Source: an uncultured bacterium
GTDB taxonomy: Bacteria > Patescibacteriota > JABMPQ01 > CAVVCK01
Assembly (NCBI GenBank): GCA_963746775.1
Contig: CAVVCK010000001.1
Span: 418,435 to 482,434, forward strand
DNA: 64,000 nucleotides
Reading direction: 5' to 3'
In this document: positions 15,185 through 61,347 of the stretch, piece after piece
Position numbering within the stretch: position 1 is the first letter of the stretch
How the letters are laid out: every line of letters starts with the position of its first letter
Position numbers and translations under genes: made by a program
The notes under the pieces: generated by a model
The model's input: only the letters and a program-made list of their open reading frames with translations
Databases searched by the model: none
What the model was told of the DNA's origin: nothing

Positions 15185-16799
15185 TTATTTTGTATAATTC
15201 TTCCTAAATTTCTCCATAAAAGGAGTTGTCTCTCTCTTTGGCACTTTCATTTTCTTCAATCTTTTCTCAATTTCAGCCTGTGATAATTTAACATTCAATC
15301 TTCTTTTAGATATATTAATTTCAATCACATCACCATTTTTTATAATTCCAATTACTCCACTATTATATCCTTCAGGCTCAATGTGACCAATACAAGCTCC
15401 TCTAGTTCCACCGGAAAAACGGCCATCTGTAAGCAAAGCTACTTTGAGACCTGCACCAGAAATCACTGAGGTAGGTGTCAACATCTCCGGCATACCAGGA
15501 GCACCAGCCGGCCCCATAAAATTAACTACTACTACATCACCATTTTTAATATTTTTATTTTCTACCGCCTTCATTACTGCTTCTTCAGTATTGAATACCT
15601 TGGCTGGTCCGCTAAATTCTAGCATATCTTTCTCTACTGCTGTTTGTTTTATAACCGATGAATTGCAAATATTTCCTTTCAAAACGGCAATACCTCCTTC
15701 TTTGTAATAAGGATTATTCAATGGTCGAATTACATCATTATTTTTAATTTTACCCTTTTGAGCTATTTCTTTTATATTTTTTCCATTTACAGTCTCTGAT
15801 GATTTTAAATATTTTTTTAATCTATTTAAAACTGCTGGAATTCCTCCTGCCTTATCCAAATCTTCCATTACATGCTCACCTGCTGGTCTTATTTTACAAA
15901 TATTGAGCGTAGTTTTAGATATTTTATCAAATAATTCCAATGGCAAATCAATATTCATCTCATTTGCTATAGCAGGTAAATGTAGAGCGGTGTTAGTTGA
16001 CCCCCCAATAGCCATATCAACTCTGATTGCGTTTTCAAAAGCAGCTTTAGTCATAATCTTCCGGGGGTAAATATTTTTCTTTACTAACTGCACAATTTTC
16101 TTGCCGGTCTGATAAGCTTGTTTTTTCTTTTTAGGATCTAGGGCTAGAGTTGTGGCACAACCAGTCAGGGACATACCCAAAACTTCTGTCATACAAGCCA
16201 TAGAATTAGCAGTAAATAATCCTGCGCAAGAACCAGCCCCAGGACAAGCCCGGCATTCTATTTTATAGGCTTCTTTCAAATCCATTTTACCAGCCTTAAC
16301 TTTTCCAACAGCTTCAAAAGCGCCAGATACTAAATCTATGCCTTTCCCGTCAATGCTCCCTTCTTTCATTGCTCCGCCAGTAAGAATTATAGCTGGTAAA
16401 TTTAACCTGCCAGCTGCCATAAGCATACCCGGTGTAATTTTATCGCAATTAGTTACCCCCCACCCAACCGTCCAAAGAATGAGATAACATCATAATTTCT
16501 ATATTATCAGCAATATGATCACGAGAGGGCAGTGACAATCTCATTTCCACATGCATAGCGATACCGTCACACACACCCGGCACTCCCCATTCAAATGGCA
16601 CTCCTCCTCCATCTACAATCCCTCTTTTAACTTCCTTAGTTAATTCATTTAAATGAATATGGCCTGGAATTATATCGTTATAGGAATTGGCAATACCAAT
16701 AAAAGGTTTTTTGAAATCATTATCTCTTAAACCTGTGGCACGAAGTAAGGATCTATGAGGCATTGTTTCAATGCCCTTTTTTAGTTTTTCACTTCTCAT
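15185..16799 (-). CDS. ilvD: dihydroxy-acid dehydratase, split into two ORFs by a +1 frameshift in a C6 (G6 on the coding strand) homopolymer at 16455-16460
   Basis: ORF 16449-16799 encodes the IlvD N-terminus ([23 protein letters not shown]...GIAMHVEM...[10 protein letters not shown]). ORF 15185-16426 continues it ([13 protein letters not shown]...). Removing one G restores [21 protein letters not shown], the conserved [12 protein letters not shown] motif. Confidence 0.8.
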
Positions 16800-22383: not shown

Positions 22384-24234
22384 CTATTTTCCATTTCTCT
22401 TATTATAAAGTATATTGTATCCCCTCTCAAAAGCCTCAATCGAGGCTACTATTACATCTGGAGAAGTAGCGGTCGCAATAACTCTGTTGTCCTTATCATC
22501 TTTCAAACTCATGGAAACTTCCACCGTCGCATCAGTTCCTTTCTGATCAATTTTTACATCAAAATCTGTTAACCAATATTTCATTAACTTTTCTTTTTTA
22601 ATAACTGCCCGAACTGCTCTCATTATAGCATCAACCGGGCCTACACCTTTAGCTTTGTCCGTACTTACACATTTATTTTTTATACAAACTTTAACTTCTG
22701 CTACTGCCTTATCATTTTTAGAAGTAGATACTTCAAAATCTTCTATCTTAATTAATTTCTTTGAATCCGGTACAGTTTTTAGAACATCTTCTATAATATG
22801 TTGCAAATCTGACCCTACCATTTCTTTTCCTTTCTTGAAAAAACTCTCTATTTCATTATATGTGGCACTTAAATACTCTTTATTTAAATCCAGGCCAAAA
22901 TCTTTATTTATTACTCTCTTTAATTGTCCCAAACTAGGTTTCTTAGACCAAAGTTCTTTTACTTTATCTTTTTCTACCGTTCCTTTAATATTATATAATT
23001 TCATTTTCAAATAGCTATCTACTTCAGACATCTTTGGTTCAATCGAGGGTGGAGAAGGCAAAATTTTCAACATAGTTAAAGGATCTTTTAATCCATTGCC
23101 AGTACAAACACAAACAACCACGTCATCTTTTTTAATTTTCTTTTGTTTCACCATTTTATGTAGTGCAGCTAGAGGCAACGCTGCCGAAGGTTCAACAAAA
23201 ATTGATTCTTTCTCCGCTAATTCTTTTTCAGCATTTAGCGTATCTTCATCTGTTACTTCAATTGCCTCACCACGAGTTCCATAAATAGCCTTTAATAACT
23301 TTAAGCCATCCAGGGGCATACTAACCGCTACTGCCGATGACACGGTACTAGGTTTTTCTATAGCTTTCATTGTTTTAGATTTTCTCTTAAATGCCTCAAC
23401 TACTACATTGGCACCCTCAGGTTGCACACCAACAACTTTGGGCAACTTATCAATAAATCCTAATTCATACATTTCTCTAAATCCTTTATAGATAGCTGAC
23501 AAATTTGTACCACAACCAACCGGAGCTATCACCCAATCAGGAGACTTCCAGTAAAGCTGTTCGGCTATTTCATAGCCTTGCGATTTCTGTCCTTCTCCGC
23601 GAAAAACATAATCTCCAGCTAAATAAAATCCATATTTATGAGCAATTTCTTCAGTTAATTTAGCACACTCAGTATAAGTTCCCCTCACCTGAATTACTCT
23701 GGCACCATAAGCTAGAGTTTGAGCTAGTTTTCCCAAGGGAGTTCCTTCAGGTACTACAATATAAGCGGGAATTCCTGCTTGAGCGGCATAAGCAGCCACA
23801 GATGCTGCCATATTCCCAGTTGAGGCGGTAATAATAGCTTCTGCCCCCATTTCCATAGCCTTAGTCATTTCTACCATCGTTCCTCTATCTTTAAAGCCCC
23901 CTGTAGGATTAGAAGTTTCATCTTTAAAATATAATTTATTTAAACCAAGTTTCTTACCTATTTGTTTGCTTCTTTTTAAGGGCGTTCCTCCTTCATTAAG
24001 GCTGACTAATTTATTTAAATCCATAATAGGATAAAAACTCATATATTTAGCCGATGAAAGTGGTGTATTTTTTAGTGAATAAAAATTAAGCCTGCTCTTT
24101 ATATATTCATAATCATATTCAACATCCAAGGGTCCGCCACACTTCAGACAATGAGAAGTTGTTTCCTCTTCTTTAAAATATTTTCCACAGTTTGCACACT
24201 TTAATTTATAAAATTTTTCTTGTTTGGTTGTCAT
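22384..24234 (-). CDS. thrC: threonine synthase with N-terminal Zn-ribbon and a C-terminal LeuA-dimerisation/regulatory-like domain (unusual fusion)
   Basis: PLP-lysine motif NPTGGFKDRGTMV and Cys4 N-terminus (CANCG...CLKCGG). The C-terminal ~150 aa (KAKGVGPVDAIMRAVRAV...TDFDVKI...GTDATVEVSMSL...SPDVIVASIEAFERGYN) resemble the LeuA_dimer allosteric domain. Confidence 0.7.
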   Translation of the reverse strand: MTTKQEKFYKLKCANCGKYFKEEETTSHCLKCGGPLDVEYDYEYIKSRLNFYSLKNTPLSSAKYMSFYPIMDLNKLVSLNEGGTPLKRSKQIGKKLGLNKLYFKDETSNPTGGFKDRGTMVEMTKAMEMGAEAIITASTGNMAASVAAYAAQAGIPAYIVVPEGTPLGKLAQTLAYGARVIQVRGTYTECAKLTEEIAHKYGFYLAGDYVFRGEGQKSQGYEIAEQLYWKSPDWVIAPVGCGTNLSAIYKGFREMYELGFIDKLPKVVGVQPEGANVVVEAFKRKSKTMKAIEKPSTVSSAVAVSMPLDGLKLLKAIYGTRGEAIEVTDEDTLNAEKELAEKESIFVEPSAALPLAALHKMVKQKKIKKDDVVVCVCTGNGLKDPLTMLKILPSPPSIEPKMSEVDSYLKMKLYNIKGTVEKDKVKELWSKKPSLGQLKRVINKDFGLDLNKEYLSATYNEIESFFKKGKEMVGSDLQHIIEDVLKTVPDSKKLIKIEDFEVSTSKNDKAVAEVKVCIKNKCVSTDKAKGVGPVDAIMRAVRAVIKKEKLMKYWLTDFDVKIDQKGTDATVEVSMSLKDDKDNRVIATATSPDVIVASIEAFERGYNILYNKRNGK

Positions 24235-26289: not shown

Positions 26290-27537
26290 ATGAAAATAAA
26301 AATCTCTTTATTCCTACTTCTAAACTTACTAGCCATATTTACTTTAATAAATTTGACTTCAGCTTCAACCATTGATCAATTACAGCCTGCCGCTTATACA
26401 ATCAATGAAGATTTAACAGTAAATGGAACTGGTATCTTTAATTCCATTAAAATAGGTAAACAAAACGAAGGAGGTGTAACTTTCTTTAATGGTTCTATTG
26501 TTAACGCTACAACTACTGACGGAATCGATAATCCTATAGCTTTTGCCGATAATATAAGGATAGATGGCATTTTATTCAGAACAGAAGAAGGTGGTAATAA
26601 CCCTTTAAAAATAGGTGATACTCTGAAACCTAATAGTGATAATAGTTATGATATAGGACAAACAGACTCTCAGTGGAGAAATGCTTACTTCACCGGCACT
26701 GTTAGTGTTGGCAATTTACAAGGATCAAAAATAATTCATCCAGACAATCTAGCTACTTCTAATTCTGCTTCCTCAGGACAAGTTTTGTCATATAATTCCG
26801 AGGGTAATCTAGAATGGATTCCAGTCGCAGGAAATAGCGGTGATATAACTGCAGTTAGCGCCGGTTCTGGTTTATCGGGCGGTGGAACATCAGGTGATGT
26901 ATCTTTAAGCGTCTCTAGCACTGGCATAACTAATACTATGCTAGCAAACAATGCGGTAACTTCAGCTAAAATACAGGATGGCACCATAGCAGGAGCCGAT
27001 CTTACTTCTAGTTATCAATCAGGTTCTGCCTATGATAGTCGATTCGTAACCCAATCTTCTCCTTCCTGGAGTTCTAGAACTGGTTATGTAAGTGTGGCTC
27101 CCGGCGCCTTCACCCCTAAAAAGAACTATTATGATACTGATCCAGGAGGAAGTACTGATTATAATTATACACATCTAGGATATAAGTTAACTGGTACAAA
27201 TGTTGCCGCTGAAAAATATTATGCCCAAGTTGATCTCCCTCATGGATCTACTATAGCAAGATTAGATTTTTATTACGATGATGACGATGCTTCTAAACAA
27301 GCTAGGTTAGACTTATTAGCACATAGCAGAGTAGCTGCTGCACCTAGTTATTTAGCTACTGTACAATCACCAACAGGAACTGATAGTGATGGTAGCAGTT
27401 ATGACGATACTATTTTAGATGTTTTGAAAACTATTGATAATAGTAGTTATAGTTATTATTTAGAATTAGGATTATCCTCTACAAACCTAAGTTATTATGG
27501 TGCTACTATAACTTATACTTATACAGAACCTTATTAA
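26290..27537 (+). CDS. secreted fibre/adhesin-like protein, paralog 1 of 3
   Basis: Signal peptide. Conserved N-module (DLTVNGT...GGVTFFNG...RIDG...W..AYF.G.V.VGNL.G). Tail-fibre-like ITNTMLANNAVTSAKIQDGTIAGADL repeats. C-terminal ITYTYTEPY. Confidence 0.6.
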   Translation: MKIKISLFLLLNLLAIFTLINLTSASTIDQLQPAAYTINEDLTVNGTGIFNSIKIGKQNEGGVTFFNGSIVNATTTDGIDNPIAFADNIRIDGILFRTEEGGNNPLKIGDTLKPNSDNSYDIGQTDSQWRNAYFTGTVSVGNLQGSKIIHPDNLATSNSASSGQVLSYNSEGNLEWIPVAGNSGDITAVSAGSGLSGGGTSGDVSLSVSSTGITNTMLANNAVTSAKIQDGTIAGADLTSSYQSGSAYDSRFVTQSSPSWSSRTGYVSVAPGAFTPKKNYYDTDPGGSTDYNYTHLGYKLTGTNVAAEKYYAQVDLPHGSTIARLDFYYDDDDASKQARLDLLAHSRVAAAPSYLATVQSPTGTDSDGSSYDDTILDVLKTIDNSSYSYYLELGLSSTNLSYYGATITYTYTEPY

Positions 27538-27616
27538 TAAAATGATTTTTAAAATTATAAAATTTTTGTTATAATAAATAATAATTTAAAAAGACTCTGC
27601 CAGATAAAAAAACAAA

Positions 27617-28690
27617 ATGAAAAAACTATTGCCTTTCCTAACAATTTTAGGCATCTTCGCTTTGGTGGATCTAGCCTCTGCTTCCCCCGCTACCGATCTT
27701 CAACCAGCTCAAACTATTACCTACAACGAGGATCTAACAGTTAATGGTACTGCCAGGTTTGATTCTGCTTACATTGGTAAAACTACCGGCGAAGGCGGAG
27801 TAACTTTTTTCAATGGTACCATGATTAATAATTCAGCAGGTAGTGTTCCTCTGACTATGGGTGATGACTTAAGAGTAGATGGTATGATTTGGAGAGGGCC
27901 TTCTAAAGGAACAGCTGATGATATGCCTTTAAAGATAGCCGATACGCTAATGCCTGCTCTAAATAATGTTAACGATATAGGGACGGAAGATAATCAGTGG
28001 AAAGATGCCTATTTTGCTGGTGAGGTAACTGTAGGTAATTTGTTAGGAACAGGAGTAATTCATACTAATAACCTAGCTACTACTAATGCTGCTTCAACTA
28101 ATCAAGTACTATCCTATAACGGAGAGGCTTTAGAATGGGTAAATGGAGGTGATATTACCGGAATTACTGCTGGAACAGGATTATCTGGCGGAGGAACAAG
28201 TGGAGAGGTGACGTTGAGGGTGGATGATGATTATGTTGTAACCCAGTCTTCACCTGAATGGGATGCTAGAACAGGAGAAGTAAATGTTGCACCAGCCGAT
28301 TGCACAGGAGGAAGTAATTCATCTAATTTTACTCTAGATGCCACACGTTTCTATGCAGGATCTGTAGCATTTTTCTACTGCCCAGTACATTTACCTAACG
28401 GGGCTAATATTACTAGTTTTACCGCTAATGTGGAAGACACACACGCATCAAATTTGACAATAACATTACAAAGAAATCAATTGACAGATGGTTCTCCTGT
28501 TACTCAAAATCTCGCTTCTGTAAATTCAAGTTCTAGCTCTGGAAAAGTATTGTTAACAGATTCTACTATTGATAATGCCACAGTTGATAATGATTATACT
28601 TATACGATTTGGTTAAACTTCGGTGCTGCTTCTTCATTATTATCCTTTGATGGAGCAAAAATCACTTATACCTATACAGAACCTTATTAA
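27617..28690 (+). CDS. secreted fibre/adhesin-like protein, paralog 2 of 3
   Basis: Same N-module and C-terminal KITYTYTEPY as paralog 1, with a divergent middle region. The signal-peptide coding sequence is near-identical to that of paralog 3. Confidence 0.6.
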   Translation: MKKLLPFLTILGIFALVDLASASPATDLQPAQTITYNEDLTVNGTARFDSAYIGKTTGEGGVTFFNGTMINNSAGSVPLTMGDDLRVDGMIWRGPSKGTADDMPLKIADTLMPALNNVNDIGTEDNQWKDAYFAGEVTVGNLLGTGVIHTNNLATTNAASTNQVLSYNGEALEWVNGGDITGITAGTGLSGGGTSGEVTLRVDDDYVVTQSSPEWDARTGEVNVAPADCTGGSNSSNFTLDATRFYAGSVAFFYCPVHLPNGANITSFTANVEDTHASNLTITLQRNQLTDGSPVTQNLASVNSSSSSGKVLLTDSTIDNATVDNDYTYTIWLNFGAASSLLSFDGAKITYTYTEPY

Positions 28691-28720
28691 TAAAAATATA
28701 AAATAATATAAAAAAACAAA

Positions 28721-29602
28721 ATGAAAAAACTATTGCCTTTCCTAACAATTTTGGGCATCTTTGTCTTAGCTGGTTTTGCTTCTGCCTCTACCGCTAATGA
28801 ATTACAACCTGCCTCATCACTTGTTGTTGATAAAGAACTACGAGTGCTTGGTACCGCTAGAGCCTATTCAATTCGTATCGGTGCTCAGGGATATGGTGGT
28901 GTAACTTTTTTTAATGGAACAATTATCAACGAAACCACGGATACAGATACAGGAACAGAAATGCCAGTAACTTTTGGTGATGATGTCAGAATAGATGGAC
29001 GTATTTGGAGAGGAGAAAATGCCGGACCAGGATTAAATGATGATCGTGAGCTTATTGTTAATGATGATATGGAGATAACTGGTGATTTAACTGTTAACAA
29101 TTTAGTTGGTACAGGAGTAGTAAATAGTAATAATATATTAGATGGGACAATAACTACTGCTGATTTGGCTGATAGTTCAATTACTAGTGCTAAACTTACT
29201 GATGGAACTATAATGGGTAGTGATATTTCAAGTTCTGCTGATTTAAGTGTAGCTACTGGTACTTTTTCGGGAGATATAACTGCCCACGGAGATATTATTC
29301 AGGATTTAGCTGACCATGGAGCAGCGAAAGCGTTAACTGTTATACATGAGGATGGAACATGCCCAACTCAATGGACATATAATGATAGTACTATAACTTG
29401 TGCAAGCATTGGTGCTGGAAATTATACTGCAACATTCACTTTTAATGTTTATAATAGATATAACCAGTTAACTGGATTACAATCTGATCCGCATTTCCTT
29501 AATTATAATGTAAACCTAGCTACACCAAAAGTTCTCTATATACGTAGCTACGATATTGCAGGAAATCCAGAAAATTCTAATGTTGTAATTTCTGTTTTCT
29601 AA
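28721..29602 (+). CDS. secreted fibre/adhesin-like protein, paralog 3 of 3 (shorter, divergent C-terminus)
   Basis: MKKLLPFLTILGIFVLAGFASAS signal peptide. Conserved GGVTFFNGTIINE...RIDGRIWRG module. ILDGTITTADLADSSITSAKLTDGTIMGSDI repeats. Confidence 0.6.
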   Translation: MKKLLPFLTILGIFVLAGFASASTANELQPASSLVVDKELRVLGTARAYSIRIGAQGYGGVTFFNGTIINETTDTDTGTEMPVTFGDDVRIDGRIWRGENAGPGLNDDRELIVNDDMEITGDLTVNNLVGTGVVNSNNILDGTITTADLADSSITSAKLTDGTIMGSDISSSADLSVATGTFSGDITAHGDIIQDLADHGAAKALTVIHEDGTCPTQWTYNDSTITCASIGAGNYTATFTFNVYNRYNQLTGLQSDPHFLNYNVNLATPKVLYIRSYDIAGNPENSNVVISVF

Positions 29603-46726: not shown

Positions 46727-47143
46727 TTAGGCAACAAATAAAGCCTGAATTACATAACGACTGATAGCAAAGGCAATAGCGATAATAACTACACCAATAA
46801 TCGCATATAACATGATTTTCTTACCTGTTTCTATTCTCTCCTCATTACCTATTGAAGTTGCATAAACAACACCACCATAAACAAATAAAGCAACTAAAAC
46901 AACACCTAATATTCCTACTACCCAACTAATAATTCTAGCAACAAAATCTGGAAGATTTACATCTTGTGCTAAACCCGTATCTTGTACATCATCTAAAGTA
47001 GCTGCTGGATCACCTGCTGTTACGCCAGCACCATCACCAGGAGCAGCCAATACTGGAGTAAAAAGAGTAAACATTAAAGTTAAAGCAAATAAAAAACTGC
47101 CTATAACCATGTATAATTTAGCCATTTTTTTCATTCCATTCAC
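46727..47143 (-). CDS. VirB2/TrbC-like (T4SS-type) pilin-like protein, paralog 1 of 6
   Basis: Signal peptide. Conserved C-terminal module IISWVVGILGVVLVALFVYGGVVYATSIGNEERIETGKKIMLYAIIGVVIIAIAF (helix-loop-helix). Confidence 0.55.
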   Translation of the reverse strand: MNGMKKMAKLYMVIGSFLFALTLMFTLFTPVLAAPGDGAGVTAGDPAATLDDVQDTGLAQDVNLPDFVARIISWVVGILGVVLVALFVYGGVVYATSIGNEERIETGKKIMLYAIIGVVIIAIAFAISRYVIQALFVA

Positions 47144-47251
47144 CTCCTTTCAATATATTTTTATCATTTAATAAAATAAATGCCTTATTTTGTAAGTATA
47201 GCACAATTTATCATATAAATACAGACTTTCTCTAAATTATTCAGGTAAAAT

Positions 47252-47683
47252 TTATCTGCTGCCACTACTACCACTACTGCCACCACCATTATTTTGTGAC
47301 CAGTCACTTTGGTCAGTAAACAAGCCTTCAATAACATAATTAGTAATTGCAAAAGATAGGGCGACTACAACAATTCCTATAATAGCATAAGTTAAAACTT
47401 TTTTAGCCTTATCTATTTGCTCACCACCAGCTGAAGTAGCATATAACACACCTCCGTAAATTAATAAAACTAGAAATATAATCCCTATAATACCTACTAT
47501 TATATTTATTATCCTAATTATCGTTCCTGACAAACTTTGATTAGCTGAAAAAAAAGAATTATCTGAACTATTGTCAAAATTTTCTAATCCAAATTGAGCC
47601 AGTACTTGATTAGAAATTAATAAAAAACATGCTAAAAAAAACATAAAAATTAGACAAAATAAAACTGCTTTTTTTAACATCAA
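47252..47683 (-). CDS. VirB2/TrbC-like pilin-like protein, paralog 2 of 6, with Gly/Ser-rich C-terminal tail
   Basis: IYGGVLYATSAGGEQIDKAKKVLTYAIIGIVVVALSF module followed by NGGGSSGSSGSR. Confidence 0.55.
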   Translation of the reverse strand: MMLKKAVLFCLIFMFFLACFLLISNQVLAQFGLENFDNSSDNSFFSANQSLSGTIIRIINIIVGIIGIIFLVLLIYGGVLYATSAGGEQIDKAKKVLTYAIIGIVVVALSFAITNYVIEGLFTDQSDWSQNNGGGSSGSSGSR

Positions 47684-47708
47684 TTTTTAAATAATTTATA
47701 TTTACAAT

Positions 47709-48560
47709 TTAGGATCCTGAAGAGCCACTTCCAAGACTACCGCCCCCGCTACCAGTAAGGGCGCTAACTATAAACTGTGTAATAGCAAACGATAAAGCTA
47801 CTATTATAATTCCTATAATAGCATAAGTTAATACTTTTTTCGCTTTTCCAGCCTGTTCTTCGTTGCCAGCTGATGTCATATACATTACTCCGCCATAAAT
47901 AAGCATTACTAAAAGAATAATTCCTACCGCACCTGTAATATAACTAATAATTCTTACTATAACTGTAGCTATGTCATCCCGAGGAAGCTCACTAGGCACA
48001 GAATCTAATCCATAATTACTAGACGAACTTGGATTATTATTATTACGATTACTGCCTCCGCAGATATTATTAATACATTCTAAACCACCTGAGCAATCCT
48101 CATTATCTGTACAAGAAGCCCCACCACCAGTCCTATTAACACATGTACCACTTATACATTCAAGACTGCCTGAACAATCATTATCATCTGTGCAGATAGA
48201 ACCGCCGCCATTAATAACATCTGCGGGATCATTACCAGTTGGGCGATCACATGTTCCACTTCTGCAAACTAAACCCTCTGTACAATCAGAATTAATATTA
48301 CACGAATCTCCAAGTTCTGCTCTTAGTCTTGCTTCTTCGTCACTAGGTCCCTCACATATACCTGTAGTTGGGGGATCAACATCATCATTTGCTCCTACAC
48401 ATGTTTCTCTATTAGCTCTTTCACAATCTGAATCATAAGCACATTCATCACCTACTCTAGCATTTACGTCTCTAGTATTAAAATAAAAGACCAATCCCCA
48501 CGCAAGAATTACTCCAAAAAATAAAGGTAAAATTTTAAAAATTTGTTTTAAATTTTTCAT
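47709..48560 (-). CDS. VirB2/TrbC-like pilin-like protein, paralog 3 of 6, with large Cys-rich repeat ectodomain and Gly/Ser tail
   Basis: Repeats of C..D.DCSG.LEC..G.C. Then IYGGVMYMTSAGNEEQAGKAKKVLTYAIIGIIIVALSF. Ends GSGGGSLGSGSSGS. Confidence 0.55.
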   Translation of the reverse strand: MKNLKQIFKILPLFFGVILAWGLVFYFNTRDVNARVGDECAYDSDCERANRETCVGANDDVDPPTTGICEGPSDEEARLRAELGDSCNINSDCTEGLVCRSGTCDRPTGNDPADVINGGGSICTDDNDCSGSLECISGTCVNRTGGGASCTDNEDCSGGLECINNICGGSNRNNNNPSSSSNYGLDSVPSELPRDDIATVIVRIISYITGAVGIILLVMLIYGGVMYMTSAGNEEQAGKAKKVLTYAIIGIIIVALSFAITQFIVSALTGSGGGSLGSGSSGS

Positions 48561-48586
48561 TTTTTTATAATTTTATGTTTTCATAA

Positions 48587-48958
48587 TTATCCACTGATAA
48601 TATTAATAACCGTATTTACAATCACATAAGATAAAATAGAAACTATTAATCCCATAACAGAATACCCTAAAACTTTTTTTGCTTTATTTGATTGTTCTTC
48701 ATTGCCCGCTGAAGTCAAATATAATATTCCACCATAAACAAAGGAAGCAACTGCCAAAATTCCAATTAAACCTATAACAGCGCTTAGTACTTTGGCAACT
48801 AGTTCTGGAATTGTATTAACACCAGTTAAAGGATTAGTAATTCCCGTTCCGCCGCTACTAGCCTGTACCATATTGATTGTAAAAAAAATAAAAATACCAC
48901 TAATTAAAAATAGTATCTTAATACAAATAAGTTTAGACTTATAAATTGAAAATTTCAT
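48587..48958 (-). CDS. VirB2/TrbC-like pilin-like protein, paralog 4 of 6
   Basis: VYGGILYLTSAGNEEQSNKAKKVLGYSVMGLIVSILSY. Confidence 0.55.
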   Translation of the reverse strand: MKFSIYKSKLICIKILFLISGIFIFFTINMVQASSGGTGITNPLTGVNTIPELVAKVLSAVIGLIGILAVASFVYGGILYLTSAGNEEQSNKAKKVLGYSVMGLIVSILSYVIVNTVINIISG

Positions 48959-48961
48959 TTA

Positions 48962-49342
48962 TTATCCTCCAATAGCATTGATTAATGTATTAATAATTAC
49001 ATAAGATAAAATAGTAACTGCTAAACCTATTAGAGCATAAGTCATAGTTTTCTTGGCCTTACCAGCTTGTTCTTCGTTGCCTCCTGAAGTAAAATATAAA
49101 ATTCCAGCATAAACCATAGCCGCCACAGCCGCTAATCCAACAATAGCCGTAATAAAACGTACAACAGCTGCCGCTAATTCTGTTGGACTACTTATATTAA
49201 TAGGGCTTTGCAAACTGACTACATCCCCTGAACCTCCAGAAGAAGCCTGAACATTATTTATTTCAAATATTAAAAAAAACATTAAACATATATTCAAAAC
49301 CATAAAAACAGCTAAATATTTTGATAACATATTCATATTCAA
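48962..49342 (-). CDS. VirB2/TrbC-like pilin-like protein, paralog 5 of 6
   Basis: VYAGILYFTSGGNEEQAGKAKKTMTYALIGLAVTILSY. Confidence 0.55.
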   Translation of the reverse strand: MNMNMLSKYLAVFMVLNICLMFFLIFEINNVQASSGGSGDVVSLQSPINISSPTELAAAVVRFITAIVGLAAVAAMVYAGILYFTSGGNEEQAGKAKKTMTYALIGLAVTILSYVIINTLINAIGG

Positions 49343-49362
49343 TAAATATTAGTACATAGAAA

Positions 49363-50256
49363 TTAACAACTAGGATTCCACCAAGATCCACCCCCAGCAT
49401 TAAATCCGGTTATATTAAGAATAGTATTAATAATTACCCAAGCAGCAAAAACAACTACAGTACCCAGTACTGCAGCTGTTATTATCTTCTTGGCGGCTGC
49501 TATCGTTTCTTCAGACCCTCCAGACCTGACATAAGTAAATCCACCCAGAGTTATCACTGCTACCGCTACAATGCCTACTATTTCAAAAGCAAATCTAAAA
49601 ACGTTACCAATAACTTTTAAAATATCACAGGTATTACATTTACCAAAAGCCATGCATTCAGTAGTAAGTCCTTCTGTAAAAATCCCTCGCTCAGCTGAAT
49701 TAGCCGCATCTATCTGTCTTTGCTCCCAAGCACTATAATCTATACCGCCGCCGCTTCTTCCTGTAGATGGCACGGTATCATCAGGTGTGATTGTAACATC
49801 ACTTGGTAAAACGCATCTTCCATTTTGACATAATTTTCCACTACCACACGAAGTATCACCAGAGCAAGGAATACAATGATGGCTAGCACATATTTCACCA
49901 TTACAATCTTCATTACTGCTACAATTGCTTGTATCTGGGGTTGGAGCTGTATGTTCTGGCTCACCAGCCAGGCAAGTTTTCCCAGATATCCCTGATCCAA
50001 TATCATGACATTGAAATCCAGAAGGACAATCTGCATCAGCATTACATAATGCTACACAAGTTCCTGCACCATTATCTCCCCCTGATGGAATACACCTTTC
50101 ATTACTACCACATGGAGTACTATCACTACATGCACTCCCAGGAGTTGCCTTTGTTATTTTAATATTATATACAAAAAATAATCCTAAAAAAATAATAATA
50201 AATATTAAAATGGGAAAAATGTATAATAAATATTTACTAATACGTTTTATAGTCAT
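49363..50256 (-). CDS. VirB2/TrbC-like pilin-like protein, paralog 6 of 6, with Cys-rich ectodomain
   Basis: N-terminal TM. About 150 aa with ~24 Cys in C..DxDC..G..C spacing. Then ITLGGFTYVRSGGSEETIAAAKKIITAAVLGTVVVFAAW. Confidence 0.5.
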   Translation of the reverse strand: MTIKRISKYLLYIFPILIFIIIFLGLFFVYNIKITKATPGSACSDSTPCGSNERCIPSGGDNGAGTCVALCNADADCPSGFQCHDIGSGISGKTCLAGEPEHTAPTPDTSNCSSNEDCNGEICASHHCIPCSGDTSCGSGKLCQNGRCVLPSDVTITPDDTVPSTGRSGGGIDYSAWEQRQIDAANSAERGIFTEGLTTECMAFGKCNTCDILKVIGNVFRFAFEIVGIVAVAVITLGGFTYVRSGGSEETIAAAKKIITAAVLGTVVVFAAWVIINTILNITGFNAGGGSWWNPSC

Positions 50257-53144: not shown

Positions 53145-53240
53145 ATTTATCCAATATAATTATTCTAAAAATCTTTATAATATTATCACATAAAAACAAA
53201 AAAACCAACCCTCAGGCTGGCTTATTTTAAAGCTCATTAT

Positions 53241-53355
53241 GTTGGCGACGACCTACTTTCTCCTACCATAATAGTAGGGTAGCATCGGCGCTGGTAAGTT
53301 TTACTTCTGAGTTCGAGATGAGATCAGGTAGTTCCTTACCGCAAGAGCCACCAAC
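53241..53355 (-). rRNA. rrf: 5S ribosomal RNA
   Basis: Reverse complement GTTGGTGGCTCTTGCGGTAAGGAACTACCTGATCTCATCTCGAACTCAGAAGTAAAAC...CAGCGCCGATGCTACCC matches the 5S consensus. Flanked by the processing stem GCTCATTATGTTGG / CCAACATAATGAGC. Confidence 0.85.
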
Positions 53356-53479
53356 ATAATGAGCTCTAATTATCTTTAACAATTATAAAACGCTAGCCAA
53401 TTAGTACGTTGAAATGTTGAAAATGTTGGAATCAAAATGATTTCAACGGTTTCAACGATTACAACGAATTTTAATACTA

Positions 53480-56305
<2,826 letters not shown>

Positions 56306-56549
56306 TAATTGACTAGCAATTTATAATTGCTATTACGATATTTAATTGTAAAAAGTGCTTATCTTTAAAAAATCTATCAAACAAATCTTTGTCCGCCAAA
56401 GGCTTTGGCGTGGATGAAAGGTACTAAAAAAACCGCCCATCAAGCGGCTCATTCTGGCTAGTCTATAAAAACATCCACTACTTGTGCCGCTTTTTAAACA
56501 ATTCTTTTAAGTTGTCTTTTTGGTTTAAAATCATATATTGTTGATCACT

Positions 56550-56622: not shown

Positions 56623-57699
56623 CTATTTAATCTTATTTAGATACTTGCCCCACTCTTTTTTTTCCCTATTTTTCCAATATCCTTGGTGATAAACATAGCT
56701 AGCTATAAGAGGTAAGACAGTCGTTGCTTCCGCATAAACCATTTGCTCATAAGTTGTCTCCACTTTCCCCCAAGATGAGGCCTCTTTTAGGGTTGAACTA
56801 GAACAAGCTCCGTCTCTAACATCCGCTACCGTTATTTGTATGGCATATTTATGCATAGGCACTTCTTTTCCTAAAACTTCTGCACAAACAACAATATCTT
56901 GAGCAAAATTTTTAGGAGTTCCGCCGCCTATCATTAATAAACCTGATGTTTTAGCTTTCATTTTAATCTGAGTTAATTCCATAAAATCCTTTACAGAATC
57001 TATAGAAACATGGCTTTTTTTATTTTCCCATTGATGTAGAACCAAACCGAAACCAGCACTAGAATCAGAAAAAGCTGGGCAAAAAATTGGTACGTTATTT
57101 TCATAAGCAGCCTGTACTAAAGAATTTTTCTTTTTGGAATTCTTTTTTAAATATTTACCCATTTCCCAAATAAATTCTCGAGAGGAATAAGGTCTATGCT
57201 CTAGACCATCTGCAATTTTTTTTATTATTTCATCACAAACCTGCAATTCTTTCTCATCAATAAAAGTATCATAAATTCTATCCACATAAAGCTCCCTTAA
57301 CTTTGCATCATCTATAAATTGAGTTCCTTTGTAATGTTTAAACCCTAGGGCTTCGAAAAAATCCATATCAACAATAGAAGCGCCAGTGGCCACAATCACA
57401 TCTACCATTTTGTTTTTCACCATATCTACATAAAGTTGCATACAACCTCCGGCACTAGTACTACCTGCCAAGGTTAAAATTACTGTGCATTTTTTATCTT
57501 TAATCATTTTATTAAAAATATCAGCCGCATTAGCTGTATCACGACTGGTAAAAGACATGTCGCGCATAGCATTGATTATTTTAGTTGAATCAAATGATTT
57601 GATATCAATGTGTTTTATAGTTTTCTTTAATAAATCTTTTTTATTCATTTTATTAGCATTATTAGTATAAATTAGTATATTAGCATCGGTTTTTCCCAA
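56623..57699 (-). CDS. deoxyhypusine synthase-like protein (DHS family NAD-dependent aminobutyl transferase)
   Basis: ILTLAGSTSAGGCMQ...VIVATGASIVDMDFF...GGGTPKNF motifs of the DHS fold. 358 aa. Its 5' end overlaps the agmatinase gene. Confidence 0.65.
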   Translation of the reverse strand: MGKTDANILIYTNNANKMNKKDLLKKTIKHIDIKSFDSTKIINAMRDMSFTSRDTANAADIFNKMIKDKKCTVILTLAGSTSAGGCMQLYVDMVKNKMVDVIVATGASIVDMDFFEALGFKHYKGTQFIDDAKLRELYVDRIYDTFIDEKELQVCDEIIKKIADGLEHRPYSSREFIWEMGKYLKKNSKKKNSLVQAAYENNVPIFCPAFSDSSAGFGLVLHQWENKKSHVSIDSVKDFMELTQIKMKAKTSGLLMIGGGTPKNFAQDIVVCAEVLGKEVPMHKYAIQITVADVRDGACSSSTLKEASSWGKVETTYEQMVYAEATTVLPLIASYVYHQGYWKNREKKEWGKYLNKIK

Positions 57700-58549
57700 A
57701 TTTATAACTTAATATTTTATAAATAAGCTTTGAGGCTAGAAAATCTGGAGCTTTATTATTTTTATTTGGACAAAGTTCAACAACATCAAATCCAACTAGT
57801 TCTTTTTTTTCTACAACCTTTTTTAATAAATCTAAAATTTCATACCAATATAGCCCCCCTGGCTCAGGTGTGCCAGTTGAAGGCATAATTGAGGGATCAA
57901 AAACATCAAGATCGAGGGTTAAATATACTCTTGAAGATAGGCTATCAATTACTTTATTTATCCAGTTTTTATCATTTTTAATTTGTTCGGCAAAAAATAT
58001 TGTTTTTTTGTTTATAGATTTTTTCTCGGCTATGTCTATGCTTCTTATACCCACTTGAACAACAGGACAACACTCTTTTGCTCTAGCCATTACACAAGCA
58101 TGATTATATTTTGAACCATCATAAGAATCTCTTAAATCAGAATGGGCATCGAGCTGCAAAATACATAGATCATTAAAATTTTTAGCATGAGCTTTAATCG
58201 ATCCAATGCTAATCGAATGCTCACCACCAATTAAAACTGTAAACTTGTCTTTTTTTATAAAATTATTTACTTTTTTTTCTACCGCCTTAACCATTTTCTC
58301 CGGAGAGGATTTTTCAGTTATAGGTCTGTCAGTATAAATCCCTTTTTTATAAACTTCGCTATCAGTCTCAATATCATAAAGCTCCATGTTAGCTGAGGCC
58401 TCTATGATAGCCAAAGGACCCTTATCTGCCCCCTTAATCCATGTACTTGTTTTATCATAAGGTACTGGAACTATAACTATTTTTGAATTTTTCTCACTGC
58501 TATATCTGGATGGAATATCTCCATAGTTTAACTTTTTCTTTCTAGTCAT
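57680..58549 (-). CDS. speB: agmatinase (ureohydrolase/arginase family)
   Basis: GGEHSISIG, LQLDAHSDLRD, DLDVFDPSIMPSTGTPEPGG (Mn-binding motifs). Confidence 0.8.
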   Translation of the reverse strand: MTRKKKLNYGDIPSRYSSEKNSKIVIVPVPYDKTSTWIKGADKGPLAIIEASANMELYDIETDSEVYKKGIYTDRPITEKSSPEKMVKAVEKKVNNFIKKDKFTVLIGGEHSISIGSIKAHAKNFNDLCILQLDAHSDLRDSYDGSKYNHACVMARAKECCPVVQVGIRSIDIAEKKSINKKTIFFAEQIKNDKNWINKVIDSLSSRVYLTLDLDVFDPSIMPSTGTPEPGGLYWYEILDLLKKVVEKKELVGFDVVELCPNKNNKAPDFLASKLIYKILSYKFGKNRC

Positions 58550-58550
58550 A

Positions 58551-59105
58551 TTATTTAAACTCCGGATAAATATAATTTATAAAACAAATAGCAACTAAAG
58601 CTGTGCCATATTTTTTTTTGGATACAAAACTCTCCAAAGTTATTTTTATATCCTGGAGAAAATATTTTTCTGAATAGCCATTAGTATAAAGTTCGTTTAA
58701 ACTTTGCTTAAGTTGATCTTCTGCTTCTCCCTTGGATAGCGAACCATTATATTCACAAACTAACCCGCCATACTTTTTATTATTTTTCTTACTATAAAGC
58801 CAACCGAAAATAATCCCAGCAGTACAAATTTCTCCTTTCTTTTTATTAGCTACAGCCATGATTGTTTCCATAACCGAACCATGAACAAATTCTCCAGGAA
58901 TGCTAACTTCTTTGGCTATCCCTGGCAGAATAGAAGAATAAGTAATTATATTGCACTGATGTATATTATCAGCATTTTTCAGAGCCAAATGATATGAACC
59001 AGCGTGAATGGTTATATCACTTTCACCCTTCCCTTTAGTTATAAAAAAATCTCTAGGTACTCTATTTCCATAAAGAACATTATTGCTTTGAGCTATATTG
59101 TTCAT
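58551..59105 (-). CDS. pdaD: pyruvoyl-dependent arginine decarboxylase
   Basis: VPRDFFITKGKGESD...NIITYSSILPG with SS self-cleavage site. 184 aa. Confidence 0.7.
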   Translation of the reverse strand: MNNIAQSNNVLYGNRVPRDFFITKGKGESDITIHAGSYHLALKNADNIHQCNIITYSSILPGIAKEVSIPGEFVHGSVMETIMAVANKKKGEICTAGIIFGWLYSKKNNKKYGGLVCEYNGSLSKGEAEDQLKQSLNELYTNGYSEKYFLQDIKITLESFVSKKKYGTALVAICFINYIYPEFK

Positions 59106-59109
59106 TTTA

Positions 59110-59160
59110 TTTTAAGTAAAATAAAAATCTATAATCTTTTTATTAGATTATAGAGTTTTT
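59110..59160. terminator. hairpin TCTATAATC-TTTTTATTA-GATTATAGA with T-runs on both strands
   Basis: Inverted repeat read from the sequence, between the pdaD start and the upstream minus-strand genes. Confidence 0.4.
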
Positions 59161-59394: not shown

Positions 59395-60078
59395 TCATAC
59401 GCTTCCTTTATTCTTCCACTTAGCAGCTATATACAAAAAAGGAGTATCACAAGCTGCTACAATCATCTTTATTATGAAAGTAGAAATAAATATTTGCCAA
59501 AAAATATTACTCTCAAAAACTCCCCAAAAAGCTATGCTAGAAAAAATTACACTATCAATTAACTGACTAGTCATAGTTGATAAATTATTCCTAATCCAGA
59601 TATTCCTAAAGCTGGGGAATTTTCGGCGCCAGAAATTATACGCCCAAATATCATGCATATTAGAAACTAAATAAGCAATAAGACTTGCAGCCGCAATCCT
59701 GGGCATTATAGAAAATATTGTTTCTAAGCTGCTTTGCGCAAAATCGCTCTCGTGAGGAATAAACCAAAGACAAATGGTCATTATAATTACAGTGGATATT
59801 AAACTGAAAAAACCTATCCAAACTCCTTTTTGTGCTTCTTCTTTATTATAATTCTCAGTTAATATATCCGTACAAAGAAACGACGTACCGTAAATTATAT
59901 TACCTAAAGTGGCTACCATGCCAAATAACTCTACTGTTTTTAGAACTTGAATATTAGCTAAAATAGCTGCTATCGCCATCCAGGAATAAAGACCGGCTTT
60001 ACCGAATAGGCGATAAGCAATTAAAATTAGCCCGAAATTTATAATTAACAATAAAATCCAGAGTAAAATGTTGGTCAT
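59395..60078 (-). CDS. queuosine-precursor transporter-like membrane protein (YhhQ/DUF165 family)
   Basis: 6 TM. AILANIQVLKTVELFG...GTSFLCTDILTENYNKEEAQKGVWIGF pattern typical of YhhQ. Confidence 0.45.
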   Translation of the reverse strand: MTNILLWILLLIINFGLILIAYRLFGKAGLYSWMAIAAILANIQVLKTVELFGMVATLGNIIYGTSFLCTDILTENYNKEEAQKGVWIGFFSLISTVIIMTICLWFIPHESDFAQSSLETIFSIMPRIAAASLIAYLVSNMHDIWAYNFWRRKFPSFRNIWIRNNLSTMTSQLIDSVIFSSIAFWGVFESNIFWQIFISTFIIKMIVAACDTPFLYIAAKWKNKGSV

Positions 60079-60717: not shown

Positions 60718-61347
60718 TTACATATATAAATTCCCCTTATTATTCCTGTCCCTCTGCCATTTGATGGGATTATTAATAATATACCTTCTGATATTATTTA
60801 AGGCAAATTCATTGCGAATAATATGGTCATAAAAACGCGGTTGCCATAATGGTATGCCCGGTGTATTTTGTAATTCATTTATCCTGCGCGCCGTAAATGT
60901 TTTAAATCCACGTATTATTTCGGACAATGAATAATATTTTGTATGTTGTTTATTGATTTGATTATGTTTGATGCGTTGATTGATATTCGTAGAGACAGGT
61001 TTGAAACCTATCTCTACGGGCGTACCATTCACGCCATACATATTATTAACATCATCACATTTTACACCCTTTATCCCATTATCAATAAATATCACCCCAT
61101 GAACATGATTGGGCATCACAATAAATTTATCCAAAACACAATTTGGATAATGATTGGGCAAATCAAACCAACATTTTTCAACAATTTGTGTTTGTTTTAT
61201 ATTGGATAATTTACCATTTATAATTTTACCAAAAAAATGTTGCTTATTTTTGGTGCAAATGGTAATAAAATACGCTCCGTCCGATGAATAATCATAATTG
61301 GGAAGACGCGTGGATTCTATTCGATATTTATTTTTAAATAAGGTCAT
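60718..61347 (-). mobile_element. REP-associated tyrosine transposase (RAYT, IS200/IS605-like Y1 HUH transposase)
   Basis: HUH motif MPNHVHGVIF and catalytic Tyr region WQPRFYDHIIRNEFALNNIRRYIINNP. Flanked by REP hairpins. Confidence 0.8.

Follow-up and report, generated by a model that had tools for sequence, protein, structure and literature searches.

A pdaD-speB-speY operon with a probable role in putrescine-independent homospermidine synthesis in a Patescibacteria bacterium

The window analysed here, a stretch of 64,000 nucleotides of contig CAVVCK010000001.1, carries three adjacent genes for a homologue of pyruvoyl-dependent arginine decarboxylase (PdaD), an agmatinase-like ureohydrolase (SpeB) and a protein of the deoxyhypusine synthase (DHS) family, referred to below as SpeY. 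The question raised by this locus is what the three enzymes would make together: putrescine, a modified protein or another polyamine. Comparison of the gene products with characterised enzymes indicated that the three genes very probably form an operon through which a bacterium of the Patescibacteria, or candidate phyla radiation (CPR), makes homospermidine independently of putrescine (the SpeY or 'diagmatine' pathway).

Three open reading frames (ORFs) of the minus strand, all in the same direction, occupied positions 56623-59105 exactly:

58551..59105, minus strand: pdaD-like gene for a pyruvoyl-dependent arginine decarboxylase proenzyme of 184 aa (PF01862)
57680..58549, minus strand: speB-like gene for a Mn-ureohydrolase of the arginase fold, 289 aa (PF00491, TIGR01230)
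56623..57648, minus strand: speY, gene for the deoxyhypusine-synthase-family protein (PF01916, NF002699, identity to CdmS)

A preliminary description of this DNA had placed these three genes here, and the matches to PF01862, PF00491/TIGR01230 and PF01916, far beyond chance, bore this out. The overlapping ends that it also reported were not found with the starts given above. The stop codon of pdaD (TAA, 58553-58551) was followed after one base by the ATG of speB at 58549, and the 20-nt overlap between speB and speY was an artefact of the longest ORF (56623-57699, 358 aa), as it needs a TTG start at 57699 within the 3' end of speB. The ATG at 57648 gives a 31-nt spacer instead. CdmS of Thermus thermophilus (MQKKELL...) begins at the equivalent of this ATG (MNKKDLL...), and the relatives of speY are mostly approximately 337-342 aa long with the equivalent start, while a minority were called at 350-383 aa. 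The TTG at 57699 is probably not the true start of speY.

The speY product matched the PF01916 deoxyhypusine synthase family with 330 bits (E-value 2e-98). With the equivalog model NF002699 it scored 596.4 bits against a cut-off of 500, over profile positions 1-337 of 338, while it was under the cut-offs of five DHS models: NF002006 (300 against 434), TIGR00321 (232 against 304), NF002630 (229 against 364), NF002294 (168 against 350) and NF003052 (144 against 380). The score with the cyanobacterial-type 'homospermidine biosynthesis protein' model NF001980 was also under the cut-off (201 against 450).

For residue-level comparison, the sequences of CdmS (TTHA1570), human and Arabidopsis DHS, Senecio homospermidine synthase (HSS) and Cylindrospermum SpeY (CsSpeY) were rebuilt from Supplementary Figure 1 of PMC10981699. 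SpeY of the window showed 58% identity to T. thermophilus CdmS over the full length (338 aligned residues), 32% to cyanobacterial SpeY, approximately 30% to the archaeal DHS structures 8put and 7cmc, and 25-28% to eukaryotic DHS and plant HSS. Seven residues of CdmS have been named for agmatine binding and catalysis, including the catalytic K299, the guanidino-binding S67 and E293, and E136 and D143 for the second agmatine (PMC10981699). The CdmS numbering of that study equals the supplement sequence +5, and all seven residue types match at this offset. Six of the seven were the same in the window, namely S63 (S67 in CdmS), E132 (E136), D139 (D143), F200 (F204), E289 (E293) and K295 (K299). 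The seventh, L286, was replaced by C282, which is non-acidic, unlike the Asp of eukaryotic DHS. The catalytic K295 lies in an SSWGK motif and corresponds to K329 of the human enzyme. Both K295 and C282 were invariant in the 120 closest database relatives (120/120 each), and because of this invariance Cys282 is regarded as a trait of the subfamily and not as a lesion.

Relative to human DHS, the residues T131, D238, D313, E323 and W327 and the GGG loop were kept, while D243, D316 and H288 were replaced by F200, C282 and N247, respectively, and E137 and N106 were not kept (N106 being changed to S). A KNF motif replacing KHH was common to the window SpeY, CdmS and CsSpeY, and an AQDIVV..AEVLG insertion was common to the window SpeY and CdmS. 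In a neighbour-joining tree of a small reference set (100 bootstraps), the window SpeY and its relatives grouped with CdmS in 98/100 bootstraps and then with CsSpeY in 100/100, and archaeal and eukaryotic DHS and plant HSS fell outside the SpeY/CdmS group. Judged by its sequence, the DHS-family protein is an orthologue of SpeY/CdmS and not a DHS in function.

The biochemistry of these orthologues is published. Purified CdmS uses agmatine and not putrescine or spermidine (Kobayashi et al. 2024, PMC10981699). Its product, N1,N9-diamidino-homospermidine ('caldomycin', G44G), was detected as a natural compound at measurable levels in T. thermophilus, where SpeB turns it into homospermidine and a cdmS knockout loses homospermidine (PMC10981699). 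Seven SpeY homologues from diverse phyla all produced G44G, there named 'diagmatine', while human and plant DHS and bacterial HSS did not, and homospermidine formed only with a ureohydrolase present (Li et al. 2026, PMC13625781). The SpeY-linked SpeB proteins of Caldilinea aerophila and Winogradskyella algicola hydrolysed G44G with undetectable activity on agmatine in vitro, and a true agmatinase would remove the substrate of SpeY (PMC13625781). The C. aerophila cluster, pylADC-speB-speY, has the same gene content as the window (PMC13625781).

The SpeB homologue of the window matched PF00491 Arginase with 231 bits and scored above the cut-off of the agmatinase equivalog TIGR01230 (238 against 174 bits), while it was under that of the E. 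coli-type model NF002564 (143 against 302). The ligand motifs of the binuclear Mn centre were intact (GGEHS at 108, DAHSD at 134 and DLDVFDP at 213), and the protein aligned along its whole length with the agmatinase 3pzl, metal motifs included. From its linkage to SpeY and by analogy with the ureohydrolases of PMC13625781, the homologue would act as a diagmatine (bis-guanidino-homospermidine) ureohydrolase and not as a putrescine-forming agmatinase.

The PdaD homologue matched PF01862 PvlArgDC over the whole profile (positions 1-161 of 161) with 96.4 bits (E-value 2e-27, cut-off 22.7), and its profile scores mark it as a member of a divergent subfamily. Its predicted self-cleavage site between Ser57 and Ser58 (YSSILP) aligned with S52 and S53 of the Methanocaldococcus jannaschii enzyme, and its Asn52 and Glu119 with Asn47 and Glu109, the latter of which we take to be the catalytic Glu of M. 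jannaschii PvlArgDC. These positions were fixed by the mutant PDB sequences 1n2m (S53A) and 2qqd (N47A). The active-site motifs and the genomic context suggest that the homologue functions as an arginine decarboxylase.

The pathway proposed for the locus takes gene identities, orthology, catalytic residues and synteny from the window, and the chemistry of its second and third steps from the literature on the orthologues. In the first step, the PdaD-like proenzyme would cleave itself between Ser57 and Ser58 to give the pyruvoyl group and would then decarboxylate L-arginine to agmatine with no need for pyridoxal 5'-phosphate (PLP). In the second step, SpeY with tightly bound NAD+ would oxidise the primary amine of one agmatine, and the 4-guanidinobutyl unit would pass onto Lys295 as an imine with loss of NH3. 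The unit would then move to the primary amine of the second agmatine, where NADH would reduce the imine; these details of the imine mechanism are drawn by analogy with human DHS. The expected product is N1,N9-bis(guanidino)homospermidine (G44G, diagmatine, caldomycin), formed from two agmatines with release of NH3 (2 agmatine -> G44G + NH3). In the third step, the SpeB-like Mn-ureohydrolase would strip both amidino groups (G44G + 2 H2O -> sym-homospermidine + 2 urea). Arginine specificity of the PdaD homologue and agmatinase inactivity of the window SpeB are presumed in this scheme, in which, by analogy with the orthologues, putrescine would be no intermediate.

The preliminary description had proposed a dedicated, tightly linked polyamine operon starting from arginine, and this part stands, as does homospermidine as the likely product, which is supported by the orthology of SpeY and the published pathway. 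The order from arginine through agmatine to putrescine has to be given up, as SpeY/CdmS couple two agmatines (PMC10981699) and the linked ureohydrolases act after SpeY (PMC13625781). The supposed rarity of such enzymes in bacteria and a role in protein modification, both treated below, did not hold either. Among the checks that had been suggested, the phylogeny grouped the protein with CdmS/SpeY apart from the DHS and plant HSS clades and the catalytic Lys was present, while the spermidine-binding residues were not conserved (D243 to F, D316 to C).

Several points weigh against the proposed pathway. The three enzymes are known here from their genes alone, and the 64-kb window is part of a contig of at least 547 kb, on which other polyamine genes may lie elsewhere. 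The PdaD homologue was well under both NCBIfam equivalog cut-offs (TIGR00286, 45 against 107; NF009064, 41 against 207). We know of no sequence signature by which ureohydrolases specific for diagmatine could be told from true agmatinases. With Cys in place of Leu in the substrate pocket (C282), the subfamily differs from CdmS, and a Cys at this site in any assayed SpeY is unconfirmed. E. coli SpeB carries out both reactions (PMC13625781), and the SpeB homologue of the window could also yield some putrescine. Finally, we know of no reported test of arginine decarboxylase activity for the C. aerophila PdaD homologue.

An unlikely alternative is a route in which the agmatine from PdaD is hydrolysed to putrescine by SpeB as a true agmatinase, and the DHS-like enzyme uses this putrescine, alone or together with spermidine, for homospermidine. 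In its favour, the score of SpeB exceeds the cut-off of the 'agmatinase' equivalog TIGR01230, and homospermidine formation from spermidine and putrescine is known for eukaryotic DHS and plant HSS (PMC13625781). However, CdmS, with 58% identity to the window protein, left putrescine and spermidine unconsumed, all of the tested SpeY proteins (7/7) gave G44G with a ureohydrolase needed afterwards, and both SpeY-linked SpeB proteins assayed in vitro (2/2) were without detectable agmatinase activity, where a true agmatinase would starve SpeY. In addition, the acids of human DHS that bind the spermidine amines (D243 and D316) are F and C here, and no speE or speD gene was found in the window as a source of spermidine.

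It is quite improbable that the invariant Cys282 gives an altered specificity or product, for example through a protein lysine or another acceptor of the guanidino- or amino-alkyl type, or that a bifunctional SpeB yields putrescine together with homospermidine. If the reading of Cys282 were true, an ultra-small CPR cell would make something beyond plain homospermidine. Very little also speaks for diagmatine itself as the physiological end product, or as a compound that is further modified, with the SpeB homologue serving another guanidino substrate. G44G does occur as a natural compound at measurable levels in T. thermophilus and the substrate range of ureohydrolases is not predictable from sequence, but the linkage of the genes is tight (1-nt and 31-nt spacers; speB-speY adjacency in 30/80 loci) and every tested SpeB in the published work converts G44G to homospermidine. 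Barely credible is the modification of a protein, with the operon as donor supply for transfer of an aminobutyl or guanidinobutyl group to a lysine of elongation factor P (EF-P, the bacterial homologue of initiation factor 5A, IF5A) or another factor: the DHS fold and catalytic Lys are kept and reduced genomes sometimes lack known EF-P modification enzymes, but the orthologues of SpeY have been shown to make a small molecule, D243, D316 and H288 of human DHS are replaced, the speY product is under the cut-offs of all DHS equivalog models, homospermidine is lost from T. thermophilus when cdmS is deleted, neither an efp nor an IF5A-like gene was found in the 64-kb window or the conserved module, and a metabolite pathway fits the occurrence of the module in hundreds of bacteria that are unrelated, each time together with an arginine decarboxylase and either a ureohydrolase or an iminohydrolase.

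Homospermidine synthesis by way of diagmatine is thus the preferred reading, and the distribution of speY was examined in related genomes. The preliminary description had called DHS-like enzymes rare in bacteria, whereas a scan of one genome per species gave at least 589 confirmed relatives of the window SpeY, and a protein search gave at least 8000 candidates. The related loci examined were the best 80 of the at least 589 relatives, with SpeY proteins 75-82% identical to that of the window. They were labelled as Bacteroidales, DPANN archaeal metagenome-assembled genomes (MAGs), CPR, Deltaproteobacteria, Spirochaetota and others, with a Moraniibacteriota (L042) and a Peregrinibacteria (L078) locus as CPR members. 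Within the subfamily that carries Cys282, conservation was 75-93% between members from CPR bacteria, Bacteroidales and DPANN archaeal MAGs. A speB gene (52-72% identical) lay directly upstream of speY in 30 of the 80 loci, and the full pdaD-speB-speY trio was present in six loci of different phyla (L002, L023, L034, L044, L071 and L078), where the pdaD homologues at the same position were 59-72% identical to that of the window; PF01862 was confirmed for pdaD of L078.

The Moraniibacteriota locus (L042:3747-5214) carried a gene of the AdoMet-decarboxylase family directly upstream of speY, replacing pdaD and speB, and a SET-domain protein was encoded downstream of speY. This AdoMet-decarboxylase homologue probably decarboxylates arginine, as a speDA-type enzyme, in an arrangement beside speY that was described by Li et al. 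2023 (PMC10407285). Therefore, at least two arginine decarboxylase solutions would accompany speY within CPR.

CdmS-type speY genes, likewise 75-82% identical, were also observed in MAGs labelled as DPANN, namely Aenigmatarchaeota, Woesearchaeota and Micrarchaeota (L001, L006, L023, L041, L056, L062, L068, L069 and L073-L075). The GC content of these contigs ranged from 33% to 58%, and L023 has the full trio. Neither Pfam searches of the neighbouring genes (L073 and L023) nor tRNA scans (12 loci) yielded a diagnostic feature, and the archaeal assignment is that of the labels only. These loci bear on the question of PMC13625781 whether archaea encode agmatine-dependent DHS homologues.

Two sequence elements flank the putative operon:

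56430..56450, minus strand: terminator-like GC-rich hairpin with T-run (9-bp stem with 4 GC pairs, TTTTTAG; minimum free energy -11.6 kcal/mol)
59128..59154, minus strand: perfect 9-bp inverted repeat TCTATAATC-N9-GATTATAGA, then a T-run (by direct reading; fold -10.6 kcal/mol)

The hairpin, 173 nt beyond the stop codon of speY and ahead of the 23S rRNA gene, probably ends the operon transcript, judged by its match to the consensus only. The inverted repeat, 23-49 nt before the ATG of pdaD, encloses a TATAAT hexamer, and it may serve either as terminator for the preceding gene or as promoter/operator for the polyamine operon. A promoter scan was uninformative (22 sites against 21.2 expected), and the operon boundaries are presumed. 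A functional link with the upstream queuosine-precursor transporter gene (yhhQ-like, 59395-60078) was considered and dropped, as this gene was missing from 80/80 related loci.

The window has a GC content of approximately 30%, with 23S and 5S rRNA genes, of bacterial type, directly downstream of speY (53240-56299, minus strand; a gap of 323 nt separates the end of speY from the 23S start). The rRNA operon appears unlinked, because no 16S rRNA gene was found within 7.7 kb upstream of the 23S gene; unlinked rRNA operons are common in reduced genomes. The valyl-tRNA synthetase of the window was nearest to those of Parcubacteria (85% and 69%) and Moranbacteria (57-61%), and this affinity, together with pilins of the T4SS type and a sortase, points to a Patescibacteria/CPR host.

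Other features of the window were also recorded. The ilvD gene for dihydroxy-acid dehydratase (15185-16799, minus strand) was interrupted: its coding sequence changes frame at a run of six G, which gives the two ORFs 16449-16799 and 15185-16426. A frame shift at this run restores a conserved motif. The split reflects either a sequencing error in the homopolymer or recent decay to a pseudogene, in an ilvBNCDE cluster that is otherwise complete. Adjoining the branched-chain amino-acid genes, an unusual fusion protein of 616 aa (22384-24234, minus strand) has a Cys-rich N-terminus resembling a zinc ribbon, followed by a PALP domain of the PLP-dependent kind and, at the C-terminus, the allosteric (dimerisation) domain of LeuA. 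It may be an enzyme similar to threonine dehydratase or synthase that has borrowed its regulatory domain. Paralogous secreted proteins in tandem, with signal peptides that are almost identical (MKKLLPFLTILGIF...), were encoded at 26290-29602 (plus strand) and 46727-50256 (minus strand), regions that also hold a run of small signal-peptide proteins, one of them matching T4SS_pilin; such arrays of surface and pilus genes seem typical of CPR. Between the sortase gene and the gene for a large surface protein, the latter of higher GC content (approximately 40% against 30%), the window encodes a protein of 209 aa (60718-61347, minus strand) that matched IS200-like Y1 transposases weakly (REP-associated tyrosine transposase-like).

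By orthology, the locus belongs to a pathway that has been published and validated by experiment, and a curated equivalog model names SpeY. The main value of the analysis lies in the correction of annotation. Public records label the window SpeY and its relatives "deoxyhypusine synthase", and this label, together with the "agmatinase" score of the neighbouring gene, suggests the wrong pathway, either to putrescine or to protein hypusination. With the proposed reading, a CPR/Patescibacteria bacterium would retain a complete polyamine route from arginine that is economical in cofactors (a pyruvoyl enzyme, bound NAD+ and Mn, with no PLP and no S-adenosylmethionine), and putrescine would be expected to be scarce in such cells. 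Clusters with speY have been described in CPR and DPANN genomes with horizontal transfer between them (Li et al. 2023, PMC10407285), and the window adds one more CPR case to this spread of the module among CPR, DPANN and other subsurface organisms. It is not new in kind and opens no new question.

Among known systems, eukaryotic and archaeal DHS (EC 2.5.1.46) share with SpeY the PF01916 fold and an NAD-dependent imine chemistry via Lys (human K329, K295 here). They differ in sequence (25-30% identity; D243 to F, D316 to C, H288 to N and N106 to S; scores under all DHS cut-offs) and in substrate, as DHS uses spermidine and a lysine of eIF5A while SpeY uses agmatine. To our knowledge, bacteria are without IF5A. 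Bacterial HSS (EC 2.5.1.44) is alike in its homospermidine end product and NAD+ prosthetic cofactor, but it has a non-homologous fold, uses two putrescines and has neither a catalytic Lys-imine nor G44G as a product (PMC13625781); nothing at the locus resembled bacterial HSS and no HSS gene was found in the window. Cyanobacterial SpeY (Anabaena/Cylindrospermum, NF001980) forms the sister clade, shares the KNF motif and is needed for homospermidine synthesis, whereas it is only 32% identical to the window SpeY, which has 201 bits with NF001980 against the cut-off of 450.

The pylADC-speB-speY cluster of C. aerophila is likened to the locus by gene content, with the same three gene families clustered, its SpeY shown to form G44G and its SpeB to be a ureohydrolase specific for G44G (PMC13625781), and differs in its host, a thermophile of the Chloroflexota as opposed to Patescibacteria. 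The closest comparison for SpeY is the CdmS/SpeB caldomycin pathway of T. thermophilus, in which CdmS falls under the same NCBIfam equivalog as the window SpeY, at 58% identity, and has in common with it the catalytic Lys, the guanidino-binding Ser and Glu, the second-site Glu and Asp, the Phe at the position of human D243, the KNF motif and the insertion, with Leu in place of Cys282. T. thermophilus differs in its PLP-dependent arginine decarboxylase of the alanine racemase (AR) fold, in a SpeB that also acts on N1-aminopropylagmatine, and in genes that are not described as a pdaD-speB-speY operon in PMC10981699, while the host of the window is a mesophile-like CPR bacterium of 30% GC.

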